NCBI GenBank assembly: GCA_001603145.1 | Contig: LVBI01000014.1 | Span: 23,558 to 87,557, forward strand | Length of the DNA stretch: 64,000 nucleotides | Source: Spirochaetales bacterium Spiro_07 | GTDB lineage: Bacteria; Spirochaetota; Spirochaetia; Treponematales; Treponemataceae | Direction: 5' to 3' | Part shown: in pieces, positions 24,695 through 50,554 of the stretch | Position numbering within the stretch: position 1 is the first letter of the stretch | Layout: the number at the start of each line of letters is the position of its first letter | Notes under the pieces: generated by a model | What the model was told of the DNA's origin: nothing | Seen by the model: the letters and a program-made list of their open reading frames with translations, nothing else | The model's database searches: none | Translations under genes and position numbers: made by a program

Positions 24695-25942
24695 TTAATA
24701 AATAAAACCATCAGTTGAAATAGTTACATCCGGAAATGAAAGAATCGAACGGTAGCTTGTGTCAGCAACTTTAAGCGCTTCTTTGCTTGCCTGTGTTGCT
24801 TCGTTCGCGGCTGCCTTTGCTTCTTGTGCTGCAGCGGTAGCTTCTTTGGCTGCTAAAGTAGCTTCTCTTGCGGCGGCGGCAGCTTCTCTTGCAGCCTGTG
24901 TAGCTTCTTGCATAGCCATAGACTGCTGGTTCTGCGCATTAATTTGCGCAGCCTGATTTGCCTGCATCTGGGCTTGTGCCTGTGCAAGAGCTTGCGCTTG
25001 GGCTTCAGCCTGTGCTTTAGCATAAGCCTGAGCTTGTGCCTCTGCCTGAGCCTTCGCATAAGCGGCTGCCTGTGCTTCAGCTTGAGCCTGAGCATCCTGA
25101 GCCGCCTTAAGCTGTGCCTGCGCTTCTGCGAGCGCCCTAGCCTGCTCTTCGGCTTGTGCCTGAGCCTGCGCAAGAGCGGCTTCTTGTGCGGCAAGCTGCT
25201 CTTTCTGTTTCTGGGCTGCAATTTCTTCGGCAGACGGGCCTGCACTGATTGTGCCCGGCACAGGAATAGCTGTAAACACTTCGCCCTGGTTTTCCGTTCC
25301 GGCTGGAACTGCTTCAACTTGAACAAAGCCTGTTTCCGGCTCTTCTGCCTTTTCTGGTTCTTCCGGCACTACGGCTACAGCAACAGGCAGCACTTCGGGT
25401 TCTGCCTTTACCGGTGTTTCGACTTGAACCGCTTCAGCTTCCTCTTTTTTGGGAAACGATTTACCTATCCGCTCCGGGTGCGTTGCAGCAGGAAGGAATT
25501 TTCCGCAACCGACAAAAGTTGTGTTCCAATATGAGTCGCTCATTTTCGAGATGATTACGCCAGTTTTCGGGCCGTCGCTTGCAGCATGAATAAATTCGTC
25601 GTCGCCAAGATAGACAGCCGCGTGATTTACGGTGTTTGCAGCCTTAAAGAACAGAAAATCGCCAGGCTGAAGCTGGTCTTTTTCAAGACGTTCCGTTGCA
25701 TTATACAAATCTTCTGCACGGCGCGGCAGCTTTATGCCCAAAGACTGCTTTGCTGAAGTAAAAATGAGACCGGAGCAGTCCATTCCGGTTTTAGAAATTC
25801 CACCATATTTATAAGGAGTTCCTAAATATGCTTTACATTGTTCGATGAATACAGTGCGCTGCTCTTCAGGAGTTAAATCCTGCGCACAAGCAAAGAAAAA
25901 CGCCGTGCAAAGCAGAATGCACAACGTAAGCAGTTTTTTCAT
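24695..25942 (-). CDS. NlpC/P60 family cell-wall peptidase with long Ala/Gln/Glu-rich C-terminal region
   Basis: Start at [21 protein letters not shown] with a GGAGGAAAG SD. Catalytic block [17 protein letters not shown]...NHAAVYLG...HAAS. About 155 aa of AQAEAQA-type low complexity. Confidence 0.85.
24765..25228. repeat. Imperfect tandem/low-complexity coding repeats (GCNCAG/GCNGAA-rich)
   Basis: Encodes repeats such as [40 protein letters not shown]. Produces the mirror ORFs listed on both strands. Confidence 0.8.
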
Positions 25943-34741: not shown

Positions 34742-36178
34742 TTAGTCTCCAAATTTATCAAGCACATGCTTTGTGTCTTTCACGTCTGCAATAAACACAA
34801 GCTTATCGCCGCCTGAAAGCACGGTGTTGCCGTCTGCAATTGCATAAGACTCGCCTTTGTTGACAAGCAGAATCAAGAAAGTCTCATCGCCGCTTCTCAA
34901 GTCTTTAAGCGCTTTTCCGTCAACCTTTGAGTTTTTCGGCAGTTCATACTCGACAACCTCGAAGCTGCCCTCTGAAAGCGTGTGAATTCCGGTTACGCTC
35001 TTGCCGCGCAGATGGCTCATAATTGTGTCTACAACGGTGTCTTTAATCGGAACAACTACGTCGATGCCTATGTTGCGCGTAATTGATGCATAAGAAGAGC
35101 TTGTAACAAGGCAGATGCTCTTTGAGCAGCCCTGCGCCTTAAAATAAGCAGAAGTAACTATATTCAGCTCGTGGTTTCTTGTAGCCGCAATCACAAGATC
35201 ATAGCTTGAAAGGTCGCCTTCTTCAAAGATAAAGCTTTCATCGGTGATGTCAGCGTTGATTACATCAGCTTCTGGGAATTTTGCCTTAGCTTCTTTTGCA
35301 AGCTCTCGGTCTTTTTCGATTATTACAAGGTTGATTTTTGGCTTGAAACGCTTGTCAAAAACTTTTGAAAAGAAATTAGTCGCCCCGGACTTTTTCAAGA
35401 TTCCGTCAGCAACATTTGAGCCTACTTTGCCCGCACCGACGAGCGCGACACGCTTTATCGGTTTCTGACCGGTTGTGCCCGCAAGCTTAAGAAATTCTGG
35501 CAGCTGGCTCTTTTCAAGCAGCAGCGAAAGCGTGTCACCTGCATAAAGCTTCGTGTCGCCGCGCGGAAGGAATGATTCACCATTGTGCGAAACAACCGTA
35601 ATCAAAAAGCGGAACGGAACGAGCGGCTTTATAGCTTGAACGAGAATTCCTTCAAGGCTGCTTCCGGCTTCAATATCGAGAGAAGCAATTGCGTAAGGCG
35701 AATCTTCAAATTCCATCACCTCGGCAACTGCGCCATGCTCATAGGCGGCCACAATTATCTTTGCTGCTTCAACGTCTGGGTGAACCATAACGTCAATGCC
35801 GTAAAGCGGCGGCCGCGAAGTGTTCTCAAGCCATTTCTGCGCCGCAAGCAGCTTTGAATTGGCGTAATATTCGTCATTGCGCACACGCGCTATCTTGAAC
35901 ACATCGGGATAAACTGAATCGACGAGCGAGCAGGTTATCATATTAAGCTCATCAGATTCGGTAAGAGCCACGAGCGCATCAGCTTTTGCAATTCCGGCTG
36001 ATTCAAGCGTTTCAAGGCTGTTGCCGTTAGCCTGAACCACAAGGCAGTCCACACGGTCTGAAAGATGGCGGACAGTCTCTTCGTCATTGTCAATCAGCAC
36101 AACATCATTCTTTTCTGAAACAAGCCGCTTTGCAAGCTGAACGCCTGTAAAGCCCGCACCAACAATAATTATTTTCAT
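34742..36178 (-). CDS. trkA: Trk system NAD-binding regulatory subunit
   Basis: Start set at MKIIIVGAGFTGVQLAKRL. Second Rossmann motif VALVGAGKVGSNVA. Two RCK-C-like segments. Abuts trkH with no gap. Confidence 0.9.
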   Translation of the reverse strand: MKIIIVGAGFTGVQLAKRLVSEKNDVVLIDNDEETVRHLSDRVDCLVVQANGNSLETLESAGIAKADALVALTESDELNMITCSLVDSVYPDVFKIARVRNDEYYANSKLLAAQKWLENTSRPPLYGIDVMVHPDVEAAKIIVAAYEHGAVAEVMEFEDSPYAIASLDIEAGSSLEGILVQAIKPLVPFRFLITVVSHNGESFLPRGDTKLYAGDTLSLLLEKSQLPEFLKLAGTTGQKPIKRVALVGAGKVGSNVADGILKKSGATNFFSKVFDKRFKPKINLVIIEKDRELAKEAKAKFPEADVINADITDESFIFEEGDLSSYDLVIAATRNHELNIVTSAYFKAQGCSKSICLVTSSSYASITRNIGIDVVVPIKDTVVDTIMSHLRGKSVTGIHTLSEGSFEVVEYELPKNSKVDGKALKDLRSGDETFLILLVNKGESYAIADGNTVLSGGDKLVFIADVKDTKHVLDKFGD

Positions 36179-36300
36179 ACACTGAAAAACTAACACGAAT
36201 TGAACTGACGCGCAAGTCAAGAAATTGGGTCAAATATAACGACAAGCTGAAAAAGGTTTCGCTGAACAGCTTTATACCACATATCAAAAAATATATCGAA

Positions 36301-36867
36301 TTATGGATTTAAAATTTTTATTGTATTGCCTATTATGTAAAAACAGATGAAAAATGTAAAAATGAACAAACCAAAAGTTATTATAAAAGAAACTAGTATA
36401 TCCTTTTTAAGTGTTTCTCCAGATAATTCTAATCCAGAATTAGCTTTCATATAGTTAACAGCAAAAAAGTATTTGTATACAATTACAAGTAAATCCAAAT
36501 ATATACCAATATCCAAAAACATAAAAATAATATCTATTATTAATCTAATAAAATTCATTGAAACAATCATCTTGAAAATTAAATTTAGAATTTTTACATG
36601 TTCTTTCCGTAAAAATTTCTGGTATAATGTATATCCGAATAAAAAATCAAATAAAATTAATACAACTGCTCTTGCAAGCATTATAACGAGAAAACGAGTT
36701 GTTGACATTGACACTTTATCTGTCACTTGAAGCCATGAAAAAAGTAATATAAATTCAAAAAGGAAAACCATAATAATAGATGCTATAAAGAATGAATTCT
36801 TATAAGAATTCACTTCTTTCATGGCTTTTTTGTCCATAAACATTGTCAAAAAGACGTTTTTTAGCAT
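36301..36867 (-). CDS. Hypothetical polytopic membrane protein (AT-rich islet)
   Basis: 188-aa ORF with 5-6 hydrophobic helices, in a visibly AT-rich stretch. No motif recognised. Confidence 0.5.
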   Translation of the reverse strand: MLKNVFLTMFMDKKAMKEVNSYKNSFFIASIIMVFLFEFILLFSWLQVTDKVSMSTTRFLVIMLARAVVLILFDFLFGYTLYQKFLRKEHVKILNLIFKMIVSMNFIRLIIDIIFMFLDIGIYLDLLVIVYKYFFAVNYMKANSGLELSGETLKKDILVSFIITFGLFIFTFFICFYIIGNTIKILNP

Positions 36868-36911
36868 TTACTTTTCTCCTTAGTTTATCGCTTTAGGCTT
36901 TTCAACAGACA

Positions 36912-37322
36912 CTATAAGACATTGAAAGCACTAAATTTGTTGAAGGCTTTTCTGGTTTTGCAAAAATATTTATGAAAAAATCTTGAATACGAAAATCTTT
37001 TTATGACAAATGAATCGCTGGAATCTATTAAAACTATCAGCTGCTTATTGCCATTTTGAAATGCTTTTATCATGCCACCATACAAATATCCAGAATACAA
37101 GATTTTATTTCCTTCTGAAGAAATAACTCTCCACTCATTGGCGTCATCTCTTAATAAGCCCATTTTCTCATTAGCTTCAGCTAAAATTTGCACACTTATT
37201 GTTTCTTTTTTACCATTACTGTTTAAATCTATTTCTAATTTCTGAATGGTTTGCCAAGCTTCAGAAAGTCCACAAGAACAAAAGCAAATCAACATCAAAA
37301 CAAATAAAAAACCTTTTTTCAT
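36912..37322 (-). CDS. Hypothetical lipoprotein (AT-rich islet)
   Basis: MKKGFLFVLMLICFCSCGL lipobox. Starts 7 nt after the remnant stop codon at 37330-37332. Confidence 0.55.
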   Translation of the reverse strand: MKKGFLFVLMLICFCSCGLSEAWQTIQKLEIDLNSNGKKETISVQILAEANEKMGLLRDDANEWRVISSEGNKILYSGYLYGGMIKAFQNGNKQLIVLIDSSDSFVIKRFSYSRFFHKYFCKTRKAFNKFSAFNVL

Positions 37323-37329
37323 TTTATTC

Positions 37330-37378
37330 CTACCTTTTGTGGCATTCTGTGCAGCCTAAAATGTGCACGTGATGGGCG
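37330..37378 (-). pseudogene. Orphan 15-codon copy of the 3' end of the zinc-ribbon gene (AHHVHILGCTECHKR-stop)
   Basis: Aligns base-for-base with 37817-37865 at an offset of 487 nt. All 6 sense-codon differences are synonymous, and the stop differs (TAG vs TGA). An in-frame TAA lies a few codons upstream, so it is not part of a larger ORF. Confidence 0.75.
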
Positions 37379-37409
37379 TTAAACCTATTTTATGCCTAAA
37401 TGAATTGGA

Positions 37410-37802
37410 TTAAAAAGCCACAATTATTTCATATATTGCATTATTCTCGAATTTCATAATCCATAAAATATTAAGTTCATTCCAAATAAATTTTGAACCT
37501 ACATATTTATATTTGTCAAAATTCATTAATGAATATGCACTTTCAATCTCTTCTGGTTTAACTTGTTTCTCTTTTAGGCTATTTTGAATAATTTTATTAG
37601 TAAAATCAAAATCCCATTGGGGTTCAATTTTGCAAAAACGATTACAAATATCTTCATCATCATAATAGCCATAAAACTGAATTTCTCCAAAAGTATCATG
37701 CGATACAATAAAGCTCGTATCAATATCTTCAGTTTCTCTATTTGATTCTGCAAATACAAATGTAACTAAAAAAATCAAGATTAAGCATAAAATACGTTTC
37801 AT
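37410..37802 (-). CDS. Hypothetical exported protein (AT-rich islet)
   Basis: Start set at MKRILCLILIFLVTFVFA with an AGGAG SD. Begins 14 nt after the zinc-ribbon gene stop. Confidence 0.55.
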   Translation of the reverse strand: MKRILCLILIFLVTFVFAESNRETEDIDTSFIVSHDTFGEIQFYGYYDDEDICNRFCKIEPQWDFDFTNKIIQNSLKEKQVKPEEIESAYSLMNFDKYKYVGSKFIWNELNILWIMKFENNAIYEIIVAF

Positions 37803-37816
37803 TTGGTTGCTCCTGC

Positions 37817-38239
37817 TCACCGCTTATGGCATTCGGTGCAGCCTAGAATGTGCACGTGATGGGCACCGCCTTTGCGTTCAAACATGCGCGCGGTAAGGTG
37901 GCCGTCTAGCGGCACGGTTTTTCTGCAAACTGGGCAGACGCGCCTAATTTCTGGCGATTCGGGCGGCAGGCAGTGTGGGCAGCCGTGAATGTAGCATAGC
38001 CTGTCGCTTGCTTTTCCGCCTTCAAAGACAGAAGACTTGATTTTTTCTTTACCGACTAAAAATGTGCCGCACAAGGGGCAGCAGCCTGGGTTTATTCCGT
38101 CTGCATATTTTTTTGCCGGCGCGCCCTGCTTTGCTCGTTTTTTCCGCTTTTTTGAACCGAACGCCAGTTTCCCGCTAAAGACAAGCATAAGCAGGCAGAC
38201 CGCAACCGAAAGCAGCACAAAAATTATAAACATTTGCAT
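37817..38239 (-). CDS. Membrane-anchored protein with four CxxC motifs (double zinc ribbon)
   Basis: Start trimmed to MQMFIIFVLLSVAVCLLMLVF (TM), because the longer listed ORF overlaps rsmI on the other strand. Lys/Arg-rich linker, then CPLC, CPHC, CPVC and CTEC. Confidence 0.6.
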   Translation of the reverse strand: MQMFIIFVLLSVAVCLLMLVFSGKLAFGSKKRKKRAKQGAPAKKYADGINPGCCPLCGTFLVGKEKIKSSVFEGGKASDRLCYIHGCPHCLPPESPEIRRVCPVCRKTVPLDGHLTARMFERKGGAHHVHILGCTECHKR

Positions 38240-38300
38240 AACAATATATTGCAGTATAAATTCACTTGCTTCAAGTAAAAAATCACAGTATACTAGTAGT

Positions 38301-39008
38301 GTGTCAGAATTATTTATTGTAGCCACACCGATAGGCAATCTTAGCGACATGACTTTTAGGGCAATTGAAACTTTTAAAGCAGTTGACGTAATTGCCGCTG
38401 AAGACACGCGCCACACATTGCAGCTTCTGACGCATTTTGAAATAAGAAAACCTTTGGTGTCTTGCCGTTCGCAGAACGAGCTTGAAGCGGCGCAAAAGAT
38501 TGTGCAGCTGCTTGACGAAGGCAAGAACGTAGCTTATGCAAGCGATGCGGGCACACCGGGCATCAGCGACCCGGGCGCTGTTCTGGTTGCAGAAGCAAGA
38601 AAAGCCGGGCACAAAATCTGCCCGATTCCCGGCGCATCGGCTTTTGCTTCGCTTTTAAGCGTTGCCGGCATTGCGGGTAAGACCGTAATATTCGAGGGTT
38701 TTCTTTCACCAAAACCGGGCAGACGGCGTTCAAGGCTCAAAGAGCTTATCGCCACGGGAGATTCATTTATTTTATACGAATCACCGTTCCGAATTGTTAA
38801 GCTTTTGACAGATATTGCCGAAATTAATAATGAACGTCGTGTTGTTATTGGGCGGGAACTTACCAAGCTTCATGAAGAGATTCTTGAGGGAACGGCTGGC
38901 GAGCTTAGGGATGATTTTTCCGCACGGAGTAAAATTCTAGGCGAGTTTGCAGTTTTTGTAGCAGGCGAAAAAAAGCTTAAAAAAACTGAAGACGATGCCG
39001 ATATTTAG
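38301..39008 (+). CDS. rsmI: 16S rRNA (cytidine1402-2'-O)-methyltransferase
   Basis: GTG start chosen just before LFIVATPIGNLSDMTFRAIETFKAVDVIAAEDTRHT. GISDPG motif present. The listed 38037 start would overlap the divergent gene. Confidence 0.8.
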   Translation: MSELFIVATPIGNLSDMTFRAIETFKAVDVIAAEDTRHTLQLLTHFEIRKPLVSCRSQNELEAAQKIVQLLDEGKNVAYASDAGTPGISDPGAVLVAEARKAGHKICPIPGASAFASLLSVAGIAGKTVIFEGFLSPKPGRRRSRLKELIATGDSFILYESPFRIVKLLTDIAEINNERRVVIGRELTKLHEEILEGTAGELRDDFSARSKILGEFAVFVAGEKKLKKTEDDADI

Positions 39009-47269: not shown

Positions 47270-48118
47270 CTATTTCTTTTCGTCATTAGTATATTGATAA
47301 AATTTCAATCCTATACTTTCAACGGATTTTTTTAATTCTTCTGGATCTTCATGTTTTTCATTAGCAGAAAATTCTTTCACATATCCGCCGAAAATCCATA
47401 CATAGAAAATATCTCCTTCGTTTCTATCTAATGGATCATGTTCTTGCTGCTGAATATAATACCATGGAGCTGTAATGCCATCTATCGTTTCTGTTTCAAC
47501 TGTTTTTGCAATTGCAGGAATAACCATTCCTTTGAATACAACTTTTCGAGATTGTTCGACCCAACCGTTGCATCTGAAATCACAGCCTTTTATTTCTACA
47601 GCTTTTCCTTTTAAAGAATTGGTATCTCGCATTTTTAGATTTTCTGTAATGTATATTTCATTTCTAACTTTATAAGCCTTTATTCCATTTATTTCTATAA
47701 TCATGTCTGATGGAATTTCTTTTGTAGACCAGAAATAAGATTCGTCTTCAAGATTATACAGACAGCCAATAAATGTGCCATTGTTTGAATCAGGCAAATA
47801 GCGATATTTTGAATCAAGATTCAAGTTTCCGTTGTTATCTGTGCAGATTATCTTATTAGCCCATTCAGTTCCTTTTACATTTGAAAAAGAAATAACACCT
47901 TTATTAATTGAATATTGTCCTTCAAAGTTGTAGCCATCGCCACCTTTAGTTCTAAAATTTGAAACAAAAGTATTGTCGGCTTTGCATTTCAAGTAATCTC
48001 CAAATTCATTTTGAGTGACTAATACATCTTTTATTTGCGCATCCGTTAATTCATTAGTTTGCGAAAAAGCTTTTGAGATAAATAATAAAACAAATAAAAA
48101 TACAGCAAATCTTTTCAT
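47270..48118 (-). CDS. Hypothetical exported protein (AT-rich islet)
   Basis: Signal peptide MKRFAVFLFVLLFISKAFSQ. No motif recognised. Confidence 0.55.
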   Translation of the reverse strand: MKRFAVFLFVLLFISKAFSQTNELTDAQIKDVLVTQNEFGDYLKCKADNTFVSNFRTKGGDGYNFEGQYSINKGVISFSNVKGTEWANKIICTDNNGNLNLDSKYRYLPDSNNGTFIGCLYNLEDESYFWSTKEIPSDMIIEINGIKAYKVRNEIYITENLKMRDTNSLKGKAVEIKGCDFRCNGWVEQSRKVVFKGMVIPAIAKTVETETIDGITAPWYYIQQQEHDPLDRNEGDIFYVWIFGGYVKEFSANEKHEDPEELKKSVESIGLKFYQYTNDEKK

Positions 48119-48119
48119 T

Positions 48120-48220
48120 TTTCTTTCCTAAAACAGTACCCCAGTGCGGGCGTCCGTGTAACAACTAGCTGCGCCGCAGCGGGCTTAACTTGAAGCTCCG
48201 CTACGGTCATGCATCGGGGT
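48120..48220. repeat. Junction repeat copy A (core 48161-48216)
   Basis: The 60-nt core ACAACTAGCT...GGGCTTAACTTGAAGCTCCGCT...GGTCAT matches 49561-49620 with about 9-10 mismatches, at an offset of 1400 nt. Contains the hairpin CCGCAGCGG-GCTT aacttg AAGC-t-CCGCTACGG. Confidence 0.75.
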
Positions 48221-48526
48221 TCGCTCATTTATAAAATCAGTGTGAAGAATAACTTCTTTTCCTAGTTTTTTTGCATAAGCTATTTCTTTTTTCACTTGCT
48301 CACCGATATATCCGTTAAGATTTACAACGTAGATGGCATCTGAAATTTGAATTTTACTAAGATGCGCTTCGTTCAGGTGTTTTATATCATCGTCGCTTAA
48401 TTCGATATTCTCTTCGTTGTAGACACACTGCAAGACATTCATGTTGTGAGATTTTTCCAAAATAAATGCGATTTTTTTCATTTCATCCGCAAATCGCATA
48501 CTTCCACAGATTGTAACTACTCTCAA
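48185..48526 (-). CDS. Small cytoplasmic protein, nucleoside 2-deoxyribosyltransferase-like fold (tentative)
   Basis: 113 aa. ICGSMRF...SDAIYVVNLNGYIGEQVKKEIAYAKKLGKEV resembles the Rossmann-like deoxyribosyltransferase superfamily. The last 8 codons (HDRSGASS-stop) lie inside junction repeat A. Confidence 0.4.
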   Translation of the reverse strand: MRVVTICGSMRFADEMKKIAFILEKSHNMNVLQCVYNEENIELSDDDIKHLNEAHLSKIQISDAIYVVNLNGYIGEQVKKEIAYAKKLGKEVILHTDFINERTPMHDRSGASS

Positions 48527-48587
48527 AAAGGTGTTGCTCCTTTAGGTCAATTGAAGCTTTGCTATGTGGTTTTCCATATAACTTCGT

Positions 48588-49520
48588 CTACCAGTTTTTT
48601 GGTGGGTCAAAATCCTTAAGGTGTCTAGTCCATTCATAACTAAATTCATTAAGATAATTTGACCAAATCCAGCCAATATATTCTGTCTCTGTTTCAACCA
48701 AAACCCAAAATCCGTTTTTTCCTTCCATTTGAGTTATTGCAGGGTCAATGCTCAAGACTCTTACTTCAGTTCCTTTTTTAAGAAGTTCTATTACATTTGC
48801 GTCTTTAGAATTTGATGTTCGCAAACGAAGGTTATCATCAGTTATGTAAGTCTGATAATAAACTTCGCTCATAGATGTTGCACCATCTATGCCTAATAAC
48901 CATATACGATGATGACTGTTTTGGTCAAAAATTTTATCTTCGTCGTCAGAATAAACATATGTCTGGTCGTGCATATTCCTTCTAAGAATCTTTCTTCCCT
49001 GAAGATAATAATATTTAGTCGGGATAGACATTAATGCATTATACTTTTCTGCATCGCTGAAAGATTGCCAGACACAGTCTATGCTGTTCATTACAAAATC
49101 TGAGCCATCAAAAGATATAATAACTGTATCAATACCAATACCTGAATTAAACTTCAGATATATAATTGGAGGTTCGCAACTTATAATGGAATAATCCATA
49201 ATTCCTGAACTATAATTATTAAATGATTTATAATAGTAAACTTTTTCTTTATACAGAATAACAAAAACAAATTTATAATTTTTCTCTGGTTTTATTGAAT
49301 CTTGAGAAATGTTTACATCATTCAGATAATAAAAAGAAAAATCATTTGTTCCAGAAAGATATGTACCGTTTTTAACAATGTACTCTTTTACAGCGTTATT
49401 TGCTTTTTCAAACTTCTTATTATCAAAAGTATTAGGGACCCAATCTTCTGAATAGATGTTTTCCAAAAAGCAAATTGAAATTATAAAAAGTAAAAAAAGT
49501 TTTCTGATTATTCTTTTCAT
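48588..49520 (-). CDS. Hypothetical exported protein with C-terminal SH3b-like domain (AT-rich islet)
   Basis: Signal-like N-terminus LFLLFIISICFLENIYS. The C-terminus LRLRTSNSKDANVIELLKKGTEVRVL...GFWVLVETETEYIGWIWSNYL is SH3_3-like. Confidence 0.55.
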   Translation of the reverse strand: MKRIIRKLFLLFIISICFLENIYSEDWVPNTFDNKKFEKANNAVKEYIVKNGTYLSGTNDFSFYYLNDVNISQDSIKPEKNYKFVFVILYKEKVYYYKSFNNYSSGIMDYSIISCEPPIIYLKFNSGIGIDTVIISFDGSDFVMNSIDCVWQSFSDAEKYNALMSIPTKYYYLQGRKILRRNMHDQTYVYSDDEDKIFDQNSHHRIWLLGIDGATSMSEVYYQTYITDDNLRLRTSNSKDANVIELLKKGTEVRVLSIDPAITQMEGKNGFWVLVETETEYIGWIWSNYLNEFSYEWTRHLKDFDPPKNW

Positions 49521-49620
49521 TTTTTTCTCCTATGCGCCTCAAGTAGTGGGTGTCAGCAGAACAACTAGCTATACCACAGCGGGCTTAACTTGAAGCTCCG
49601 CTGCGGTCATACGTCGGTTT
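49521..49620. repeat. Junction repeat copy B (core 49561-49616)
   Basis: See copy A. Starts directly after the M48 peptidase stop codon. Confidence 0.75.
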
Positions 49621-49623
49621 TGG

Positions 49624-50421
49624 TTATTTCTTTTTAGCTGAAGTTGCTTTTTTGTACTCTTCAGTATTGCGCTGATAAAGTTCCTTTAATTTGGCTATGC
49701 GGTTGTCATCGAGCGGGTGCGTTGAAAGCCATTCCGGCATAGAGCTGCCGCCGCCGCTGAGCGATTTAAGCTTTTGAAGCATAGAAAGGCCGCCGTCCGG
49801 GTTATACCCTGCGCGTGCAGCGTATAAGCTTCCGAGATTGTCTGCTTCATATTCGTTCTGCCGCGAATAAGGCAAAACGATGCCGTACTCTGAACCAAGA
49901 CCATAAGCTACAGAAAAAAGCGCAGCACTTGTATCTGATTTCATTGAGCTTTGAACGACAGACCCTACAAGCGAAATAACTGTCTGCTGGCTCATGCGCT
50001 GTGCGCCGTGCCTTGCTGTTACGTGGCCAAGCTCGTGGCCCACAACATAAGCAAGCTCTTCGTCAGAAGCAATTGCCATAAGACCAGAATAAACTGCAAT
50101 CTTTCCGCCCGGAACGGCAAAAGCATTTACCTGCTCGTCTTCAATAACGTGATACTCCCACTGCGTTCCTTCGGGCGCATCTTTGCCCACAGCCTGAATA
50201 AGCCGCTTTGCAACTTCATCAAGACGCTTATTGTAGGTGACATTCGTAGAAAGCTTGCTTTCTTTCAGAATTTCATTATAAGACTCTGTGCCGAGCTGCT
50301 GCTCTTCTTCGAGAGACATCAAAATAAGCGCATTCTTGCCGGTGCTTTCAACCTTGCTATAAGCACAGCAAAAAAATGGTACTGCAATCAACAAAGCAAT
50401 AATTACAGCTAATCTTTTCAT
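49624..50421 (-). CDS. M48 family zinc metallopeptidase (lipoprotein-like)
   Basis: Start set at MKRLAVIIALLIAVPFFCCAYS with a GGAGGAC SD. HELGHV zinc motif, and a downstream NEYEAD region containing the likely third zinc ligand (E). Confidence 0.85.
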   Translation of the reverse strand: MKRLAVIIALLIAVPFFCCAYSKVESTGKNALILMSLEEEQQLGTESYNEILKESKLSTNVTYNKRLDEVAKRLIQAVGKDAPEGTQWEYHVIEDEQVNAFAVPGGKIAVYSGLMAIASDEELAYVVGHELGHVTARHGAQRMSQQTVISLVGSVVQSSMKSDTSAALFSVAYGLGSEYGIVLPYSRQNEYEADNLGSLYAARAGYNPDGGLSMLQKLKSLSGGGSSMPEWLSTHPLDDNRIAKLKELYQRNTEEYKKATSAKKK

Positions 50422-50554
50422 GGGAAAGTCCTCCATGTCTTTTCTACTGAAACGGCAACAGCCGATTTTTAGAAACTTCGACTATACCGTTGATTTAGTT
50501 ATTTTATGAAAAATGATATATGAATGCAGAAAGTTACAAAAGGCGAGATTTTTG

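Follow-up and report, generated by a model that had tools for sequence, protein, structure and literature searches.

The 64-kb stretch of treponeme DNA analyzed here (the window) contains, on the minus strand, a second copy of the last 15 codons and the stop codon of a conserved gene for a zinc-ribbon protein (ZR). This orphan copy (37330–37377) is separated from the intact gene by a single inserted gene, gene X, and is the 3' end of a different ZR allele, one that lies directly before a lipoprotein gene in related strains. Its origin is probably sequential displacement, in which a homologous exchange anchored in ZR was completed by an illegitimate joint downstream, and the same process appears to have acted at least twice more at the ZR locus. 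Sequential displacement is known already; new here are a core gene that is not a toxin gene and a tie to the integron cassette pool.

The ZR gene (37817–38239, minus strand) encodes a membrane-anchored protein of 140 residues, with an N-terminal transmembrane helix, a basic linker, and four CxxC motifs. It is a conserved anchor gene with rsmI and flgM as neighbors. The 30 ZR homologues are all from Spirochaetaceae/Treponema-type metagenome sequences; the eight cysteines are invariant among them, as is the tail at the protein level. ZR belongs to no Pfam or NCBIfam family, and its AF2 model (pLDDT 80) has no fold match or neighbor in the PDB. In this model, the last strand (residues 127–134) and the Cys-134/Cys-137 knuckle fall within the repeated 15 codons. 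Because the repeat encodes the last β-strand and one zinc knuckle, the ZR tail is, according to the model, structurally needed.

The orphan and the functional copy (37817–37864, minus strand), which comprises the last 15 ZR codons and TGA, match without a gap at an offset of 487 nt, and 41 of the 48 positions are identical (85%). The initial annotation had reported the same gapless alignment over 49 nt; the repeat is 48 nt long, as the outer positions 37378 and 37865 mismatch (C versus T on the coding strand). Two independent tools detect the repeat; the window contains only these two copies, and none is expected from shuffled sequences. The initial 18 nt of the copies are identical. Seven bases differ, five in sense codons and two in the stop codon. 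The differences at 37359 (Leu), 37348 (Thr), 37339 (His), 37336 (Lys), and 37335 (Arg) are all synonymous, and those at 37331 and 37330 change the TGA of ZR into the TAG of the orphan. All of these except 37330 had been listed before, for a total of six. Both copies translate as AHHVHILGCTECHKR followed by a stop. Five random substitutions in these 15 codons would all be synonymous with a probability of 2e-4 in a Monte Carlo simulation and of 5e-4 to 2e-3 when calculated as p^5 with a transition bias of 1–4, so that the synonymous excess proposed earlier is borne out (P about 2e-4 to 2e-3). The peptide and its stop are preserved in the orphan, as had been noted, behind an in-frame TAA, which we located at 37392–37390; the orphan is untranslated.

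Every base that is specific to the orphan is found somewhere among functional ZR alleles. An in-situ duplication, with slippage or unequal exchange producing a second tail in the same genome and divergence following, would also give a direct repeat 487 nt apart. However, a non-coding copy would not gather synonymous changes only, and the end of the orphan and its spacer match the allele class of L001 and L007 (see below) and not the adjacent functional copy, which leaves such a duplication very improbable. A generic repeat was ruled out: other copies of the 48-mer are confined to ZR loci, and no phage or viral contig carries the sequence.

The order of the genes in the window is as the initial annotation gave it. 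ZR is followed by a 14-nt spacer (37803–37816, minus strand; GCAGGAGCAACCAA) with a Shine-Dalgarno-like AGGAG, which is conserved before X in L013, L010, and L015. Gene X (37410–37802, minus strand; 393 nt, GC about 0.27) encodes an exported protein of 130 residues with the N-terminal signal peptide MKRILCLILIFLVTFVFA|ES. It belongs to no Pfam or NCBIfam family, and its AF2 model is poor and unsuitable for a structure search. The 3' flank of X (37378–37409, minus strand) consists of 32 nt, TCCAATTCATTTAGGCATAAAATAGGTTTAAC, and ends at the illegitimate joint with the orphan. After the orphan and a 7-nt spacer comes a probable lipoprotein gene (36912–37322, minus strand) for a protein of 136 residues (MKKGFLFVLMLICFCSC…), and 44 nt farther on a gene for a membrane protein of 188 residues with five hydrophobic segments (36301–36867, minus strand; GC about 0.2–0.28). 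The conserved right flank is trkA (34742–36178, minus strand), whose upstream block CTTGCGCGTCAGTTCAATTCGTGTTAG is common to all alleles. The region 36290–37816 has a G+C content of 20–31%, compared with 45–55% in the flanks. Toxin or immunity families of Pfam and NCBIfam were found in none of the four proteins (ZR, X, the lipoprotein, and the membrane protein). The lipoprotein and the membrane protein, like the other two, belong to no family of these databases.

A 19-nt inverted repeat brackets X (37381–37399 and 37781–37799, 17 of 19 positions matching). An element of the MITE or IS type with terminal inverted repeats was considered and rejected: the 5' arm is situated within the signal-peptide codons of X, and the repeat persists only in part in L013 and is absent from L010 and L015. 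We treat it as chance or as RNA pairing.

The cassettes are promoterless small genes situated 7–35 nt behind ZR or behind one another. A metatranscriptome contig of the uninserted allele links ZR to the lipoprotein gene, and no terminator-like site was found between the genes; on these grounds the cassettes are probably read from the ZR promoter, also in the strain of the window. The last bases of the orphan, AGGTAGGA, lie 5 nt before the ATG of the lipoprotein gene and, judged from the sequence, likely serve as its ribosome-binding site. A ribosome-binding site carried by the stub would favor joints that retain at least the last ZR codons.

The locus was compared with 28 related loci (L001 and following), onto each of which the window proteins and a ZR-tail profile were mapped. 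A metagenome scan using the ZR alignment gave two loci only, owing to unspecific peptide patterns. Among the relatives, rsmI-ZR and trkA are kept and the flanks are 73–99% conserved, but the intervening content is variable, with at least eight structural alleles in the ZR-trkA gap. The gap is empty in L004, L006, L020, and L021 (a spacer of 50–140 nt). It contains the lipoprotein gene alone in L001, L005, L007, L019, and L022–L024, the membrane-protein gene alone in L008, and X alone in L013 and L014. A TIGR04076-family gene, a ZR stub of 36 codons, and X are present in L010 and L012 and partially in L009 and L011. In all, X homologues occur at this locus in L009–L014 and L025–L028. In L025–L028, X is followed by the 15-codon stub and the lipoprotein gene, and the window has the same arrangement with the membrane-protein gene added. 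Finally, L002 and L003 contain two unrelated islands of 2–3 kb with genes on the opposite strand. Alternative genes thus do occur directly behind ZR, and this variation in gene content supports one of the two examples in the initial annotation, a hypervariable locus at which alternative cassettes are stacked.

Each gene retained in the window is also found directly behind an intact ZR elsewhere: X in L013 and L014, the lipoprotein gene in L001, L007, L019, and L022, and the membrane-protein gene in L008 (99% identical at the amino acid level). In L001, L007, L019, and L022, the intact ZR ends in …AAAAGGTAG or …AAAAAGTAG, followed by a 7-nt spacer, which is GAATAAA (TAATAAA in L019), and the lipoprotein gene. 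The junction in L001 and L007 (…AAAAGGTAG, GAATAAA, ATG) matches the orphan junction of the window exactly. The lipoprotein of the window is 99% identical to that of L001 and 100% identical to those of L025–L028, and the segment 37378–36897, which covers the orphan and the lipoprotein gene, shares 97.9% of its positions with L001, compared with 92% for the flanks. A cassette is always linked to particular terminal codons of ZR, AAGCG(G/A)TGA with X and AAAA(G/A)GTAG with the lipoprotein gene. Because each cassette has its own ZR tail, the orphan is the tail that formerly belonged to the lipoprotein cassette. This accords with the earlier proposal that it came from a diverged functional allele, as do the variants in functional alleles. 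The functional ZR end of the window is of the X-linked type (…AAGCGGTGA) and is identical to that of L002. In L013, L014, and L025, X likewise follows an AAGCG(G/A)TGA end, which is found also in the L010 orphan and, decayed, in L015. Within the stack of the window, X is probably the newest cassette, the lipoprotein gene an older one, and the membrane-protein gene the oldest.

The window resembles metagenome-assembled genomes, and ZR-lipoprotein and ZR-X alleles co-occur in rumen samples, so that co-occurring alleles might have been joined during assembly through their common ZR tail. Such a chimera is excluded. The joint of the X flank with GCCCATCA shares only about 8 nt, which is below the length of a k-mer join. 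Twenty public runs, which come from 14 studies, contain all sampled 31-mers of the junction (37305–37400). A contig of 18.7 kb at a depth of 28 covers 36100–38400 gaplessly, differing at 28 substituted positions, and the junction is also crossed by short contigs of three further studies. The junction is identical in L025–L028 and in the X11 contig. Four other runs contain a derivative that is missing 72 nt (37316–37387) by a deletion between AAAA repeats. Stub and spacer are gone in this derivative, and the lipoprotein gene has lost its start codon with the rest of its first 7 nt. The stub can therefore be lost again.

The order of events and the recombination pathway that we infer would start with a resident strain in which ZR stood directly before the lipoprotein gene, the orphan being the 3' stub of this resident ZR. 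DNA from a donor strain with ZR followed by X would have recombined with it. On the left, the crossover would have been an ordinary homologous one within conserved ZR sequence. On the right, the donor had no homology, and its end would have been joined illegitimately where the X 3' flank (…TAACGCNCATCA…) resembles ZR codons 126–130. The product would have been an intact ZR with the donor tail, X, the last 15 codons of the resident, and the old lipoprotein gene, with most of the resident ZR copy displaced and the resident downstream gene retained. In a second event, the X-orphan-lipoprotein block would have been placed before a ZR-membrane-protein allele, and in other strains a further event would have placed the TIGR04076 gene before the 36-codon stub and X. 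Ordinary allelic replacement, with both crossovers homologous, would give the single-cassette alleles, and stacking would be a rarer by-product.

The ZR backbone of the window belongs to the L001/L007 lineage (92–98% identity) up to the last ~100 nt, in agreement with a short donor tract. The left crossover is placed within these last ~100 nt, the population being too mosaic for anything finer. The homology is one-sided: ZR is shared, but the X flank and the resident ZR tail have only 8–14 nt in common. At the first joint (37370–37377, minus strand), the microhomology is GCCCATCA and the fusion occurs within GC(N)CATCA. In other alleles the X flank contains GC(G)CATCA or G(TG)CATCA, and 11 of 14 positions match ZR codons 126–130 (GCCCATCACGTGCA). 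The X 3' flank of the window is homologous to that of L013 and L010, which continues as …TAACG(T/C)GCATCAGATGCA; in ZR-X alleles the flank reads …TAACG(T/C)GCATCAGATGCAAAATAGC and then passes into the trkA promoter block. The sampled loci include neither a donor ZR-X allele whose X flank is exactly that of the window (…AGGTTTAAC; …AGGTTTAACG…) nor a recipient ZR-lipoprotein allele with the exact orphan sequence (tail GCCCATCACGTGCACATTTTAGGCTGCACAGAATGCCACAAAAGGTAG), so that the first joint is bracketed and not pinned. Chance alone could well produce a likeness of 11/14 somewhere when a flank of 60 nt is compared with a gene of 420 nt (by our estimate, about one is expected), and the motif GCGCATCAGATGCAAAATAGC in the X flank could instead be an older, decayed ZR stub.

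At the second joint (36897–36904, minus strand), only the stop codon is left of the ZR stub, and it lies in an 8-nt microhomology, TGAAAAGC. This sequence is common to the 3' flank of the lipoprotein gene (…GTTGAAAAGCAGCGG in L025) and to the ZR stop and spacer of L008 (…CGGTGAAAAGCCTAAAG). Both joints with sampled parents are thus situated in microhomology. The third joint is at the 36-codon stub of L010, which starts at …TGCGACAAAACCG, where ZR has …TGCAGAAAAACCG; the donor is absent from the sampled loci. The joints of all three stacking events fall within the last ~110 nt of the resident ZR, a clustering near the gene end that is not an obvious outcome of pure accident. It might be explained, ad hoc, by heteroduplex geometry or by selection for cassettes to be expressed behind ZR.

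The initial annotation had also offered an integrative element that restores its target gene. Elements that duplicate their att sites in tRNA, tmRNA, or protein genes likewise leave a direct repeat of a 3' end around the insert and an intact target. However, the insert at the ZR locus is a single gene of 393 nt for an exported protein, without a recombinase, and its repeat is 85% identical as opposed to nearly 100%. Independent ZR inserts also have repeats of unequal length, with stubs of 15 codons in the window and L025–L028, 36 codons in L009–L012, and about 23 decayed codons in L015–L018. This explanation was therefore not retained.

Another alternative is a Campbell-type integration, in which a small circle of 487 nt, or a multiple of this length, brings in the ZR tail together with X by a single homologous crossover in the 48-nt tail; a cassette circle excised from an L015-like integron array is one conceivable source. 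A single crossover of this kind yields exactly a direct repeat around the insert, and the identical first 18 nt are also compatible with a crossover inside the repeat. Tail-carrying circles could exist, given that an X homologue and a relic of the ZR tail occur together in a genuine integron array. On the other hand, the 32-nt segment between X and the orphan has no attC-like site or hairpin, so nothing marks the excision of a circle. In addition, 48 nt with 18 nt of perfect identity are a poor RecA substrate, TGAAAAGC at the second joint and the 36-codon stub would each require a separate circle, and L013 and L010 suggest that the X flank continues colinearly past the joint. On balance we regard this route as unlikely.

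The integron array in question contains P0036, a homologue of X (62% identical) that is encoded downstream of a bona fide integron integrase on the same strand. The L015 integrase scores 415 bits against the TIGR02249 model (cut-off 265). The same arrangement has been described for Treponema integrons (PMC3607928). The attC sites form hairpins (z = -7) and have …CAGTTG|TTA at their end, beyond which the contigs diverge in sequence, as expected of cassette boundaries; true boundaries of the G|TTRRRY type are present in L015–L018. The 84 nt preceding P0036 match the ZR tail and spacer at 52 of 84 positions in an ungapped comparison, against a background of 20.7 ± 3.9 with a maximum of 37 (19,627 positions), and 21 of the 32 mismatches are G/C-to-A/T transitions. 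An integron cassette of L015–L018 thus contains a relic of ZR, decayed and ~23 codons long. A left boundary common to the orphan and the L015 relic, which nhmmer had indicated (162 versus 164), was rejected by the ungapped comparison: the boundary is not shared, since the relic extends to about codon 118.

A further alternative is site-specific insertion by a tyrosine recombinase, either the integron integrase at a secondary, attG-type site of the genome or an Xer-like enzyme at GGTGCCCATCA, which resembles a XerC arm, with the ZR tail as part of the cassette. The clade has integron-type attC sites, one of which immediately follows the ZR stop codon of L010 and L012, and GTTTAAC just upstream of the orphan fits RYYYAAC. 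Integrases can insert cassettes at GWT sites in genomes, where these are expressed if a promoter is near (bioRxiv 10.1101/2022.09.11.507474). However, a profile search detected no attC of the clade family in 36290–37816, and neither boundary of the orphan has G|TTRRRY, reading instead …TTTAAC|GCCC and …GGTAG|GAAT. The three stubs begin at three different places in ZR without a common motif, and the target sequence is not duplicated by integrase recombination. Site-specific insertion is improbable, somewhat more so than a Campbell-type integration. A tblastn search of the 64 kb with the L015 IntI gave nothing below E = 1. Without an attC in the ZR island, an intI in the window, or G|TTRRRY boundaries, the orphan is not assigned to integron recombination; the gene pool is shared with integrons, and the joining chemistry at the orphan junction looks illegitimate.

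In a broader form of the integron connection, the ZR tail itself would travel with cassettes and the ZR hot spot would exchange genes with true integrons, which we consider doubtful. If this were so, the relic in L015–L018 would document how a chromosomal operon gave rise to an integron cassette, homology could bring cassettes with a tail back into ZR loci, and an integrase-independent, gene-end-anchored capture system would exist in parallel to the integron. The relic gives a concrete and testable example for the unsolved origin of integron cassettes, and it is the part best suited to specialist follow-up.

Sequential displacement, the reading that we prefer, has close parallels. Arrays of orphan immunity genes behind T6SS effector genes of Vibrio cholerae have been explained in this way (Kirchberger et al. 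2017, PMC5361080), and at Rhs/CDI loci, according to work cited there (Poole 2011, Jackson 2009), orphaned 3' regions form strings. Homology-facilitated illegitimate recombination is the mechanism proposed for both (PMC5361080). As at those loci, a conserved upstream gene at the ZR locus acts as the homologous anchor, new modules adjoin it and push older ones downstream, 3' remnants of the displaced gene precede the retained downstream genes, and allelic replacement is commoner than stacking. In contrast, ZR is a small conserved protein with an invariant tail and not a polymorphic toxin with a variable C terminus, the retained genes have no recognizable toxin or immunity domains, and the stubs are tiny (0 to 36 codons).

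A second parallel is the homology-facilitated illegitimate recombination of transformable bacteria (de Vries and Wackernagel 2002; Prudhomme et al. 2002; Meier and Wackernagel 2003; cited in PMC5361080, see also PMC3240628). The likeness lies in the one-sided anchor, the heterologous tail joined at a short microhomology, and the foreign DNA beside the anchor. The ZR case differs in being deduced from natural alleles alone, and its joint is upstream of the anchor end, which gives a short duplication and not a deletion in the recipient.

Polymorphic toxin loci are the usual context for orphaned gene ends and head-first stacking; here both are found at an ordinary conserved gene of uncultured rumen treponemes. 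As the footprints are the same, short untranslated copies of gene ends can be used as a signature of accessory hot spots, and also to order the history by which accessory genes were acquired.

The ZR island also resembles integron arrays and CALIN, SALIN, or attG-inserted cassettes in its small, promoterless, AT-rich genes on one strand, with the newest nearest the promoter-bearing unit (PMC3607928; bioRxiv 10.1101/2022.09.11.507474); in Treponema chromosomal integrons, intI itself has the orientation of the cassettes (PMC3607928). Cassettes of the ZR locus, namely the X homologue and the attC of L010, are shared with true integron arrays. Unlike integrons, the ZR island of the window has no attC, integrase, or G|TTRRRY, and its boundaries are stubs of the upstream gene. 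Elsewhere, the clade attC profile detects sites in L010, L012, and L015–L018 and at positions 48141–48211 and 49545–49611 of the window. The latter two are situated in a second AT-rich island (47270–49617, minus strand), where the attC at 48141–48211 starts 3 nt past the stop codon of a core gene for an M48 peptidase.

The functional 3' tail of the zinc-ribbon gene differs in an 18.7-kb contig from a public sequencing run (X11) that spans the locus. At window positions 37856–37865, this contig carries four synonymous changes that make the tail resemble that of L001 and L007 (GCACACCATGTG), two related loci in which the intact zinc-ribbon gene is followed by the lipoprotein gene. The contig is otherwise colinear with the window, and the orphan, an untranslated 48-nt copy of the zinc-ribbon 3' end, is unchanged despite the altered tail. 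The contig thus shows ongoing homologous shuffling within the tail.

The orphan itself has been lost in other strains. Contigs of four sequencing runs (X1–X4), drawn from four studies, lack exactly 72 nt (window 37316–37387). The missing stretch covers the orphan and the spacer and continues 7 nt into the lipoprotein gene, taking away its ATG. A 4-nt microhomology, AAAA, accompanies the deletion, and the lipoprotein gene is probably dead in these strains. Their membrane-protein gene is also divergent, with segments replaced at 36258–36439 and 36614–36702.

A decayed relic of the zinc-ribbon 3' end and spacer is present at L015 4917–5000, with 52 of 84 positions identical and mismatches that are mainly G/C to A/T; it is also found in L016–L018. 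The relic precedes a homologue of the exported-protein gene X and lies within an integron cassette array that contains a bona fide IntI (L015 2376–3569). In the window, gene X is surrounded by a 19-nt inverted repeat (37381–37399 and 37781–37799, 17 of 19 matching), of which one arm lies within the signal-peptide codons and the other is situated 3 nt before the orphan. The repeat is partial in L013 and gone in L010 and L015.

Behind the lipoprotein gene, L007 (5085–5200) has an imperfect G+C-rich hairpin of ~80 nt (GGAAAGTAGCGGC…GGATTTCC), as do L001, L019 and L025–L027, all of them alleles in which trkA is the next gene. Just past the hairpin, L007 and L019 contain …CAGTGT(T)ATAAG, a motif that L001 and L025–L027 do not have. 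The hairpin could represent either a terminator or a long attC-like site. The window has no such hairpin, and the membrane-protein cassette is joined in its place.

A second AT-rich island of the window (47270–49617) contains three genes on the minus strand, coding for products of 310, 113 and 282 residues, two of which have signal peptides. The island includes two 70-nt attC-like repeats (48148–48217 and 49548–49617) that are 83% identical and belong to the same family as the attC sites of true Treponema-type integron arrays. The first repeat starts 3 nt past the stop codon of the adjoining core gene, an M48 peptidase gene (49624–50436). The island looks like a CALIN inserted directly behind this core gene. 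The 64-kb window itself lacks an integrase.

In two contigs from different samples, the TIGR04076-family gene inserted behind the zinc-ribbon gene (L010 1145–1509, L012 502–866) is frameshifted into ORFs of 57 and 64 residues. Another locus, L002 (JAILIF010000063.1), is labelled a Bacilli metagenome-assembled genome. Its zinc-ribbon protein is 97% identical to that of the window and its trkA start is of the treponeme type, and the label is therefore probably a binning error. Elsewhere in the window, positions 24965–25189 hold G+C-rich degenerate short repeats of GCCTGAGC / GCTTGTGC units, in eight overlapping 51-nt copies, presumably a low-complexity Ala/Gln-rich coding repeat.
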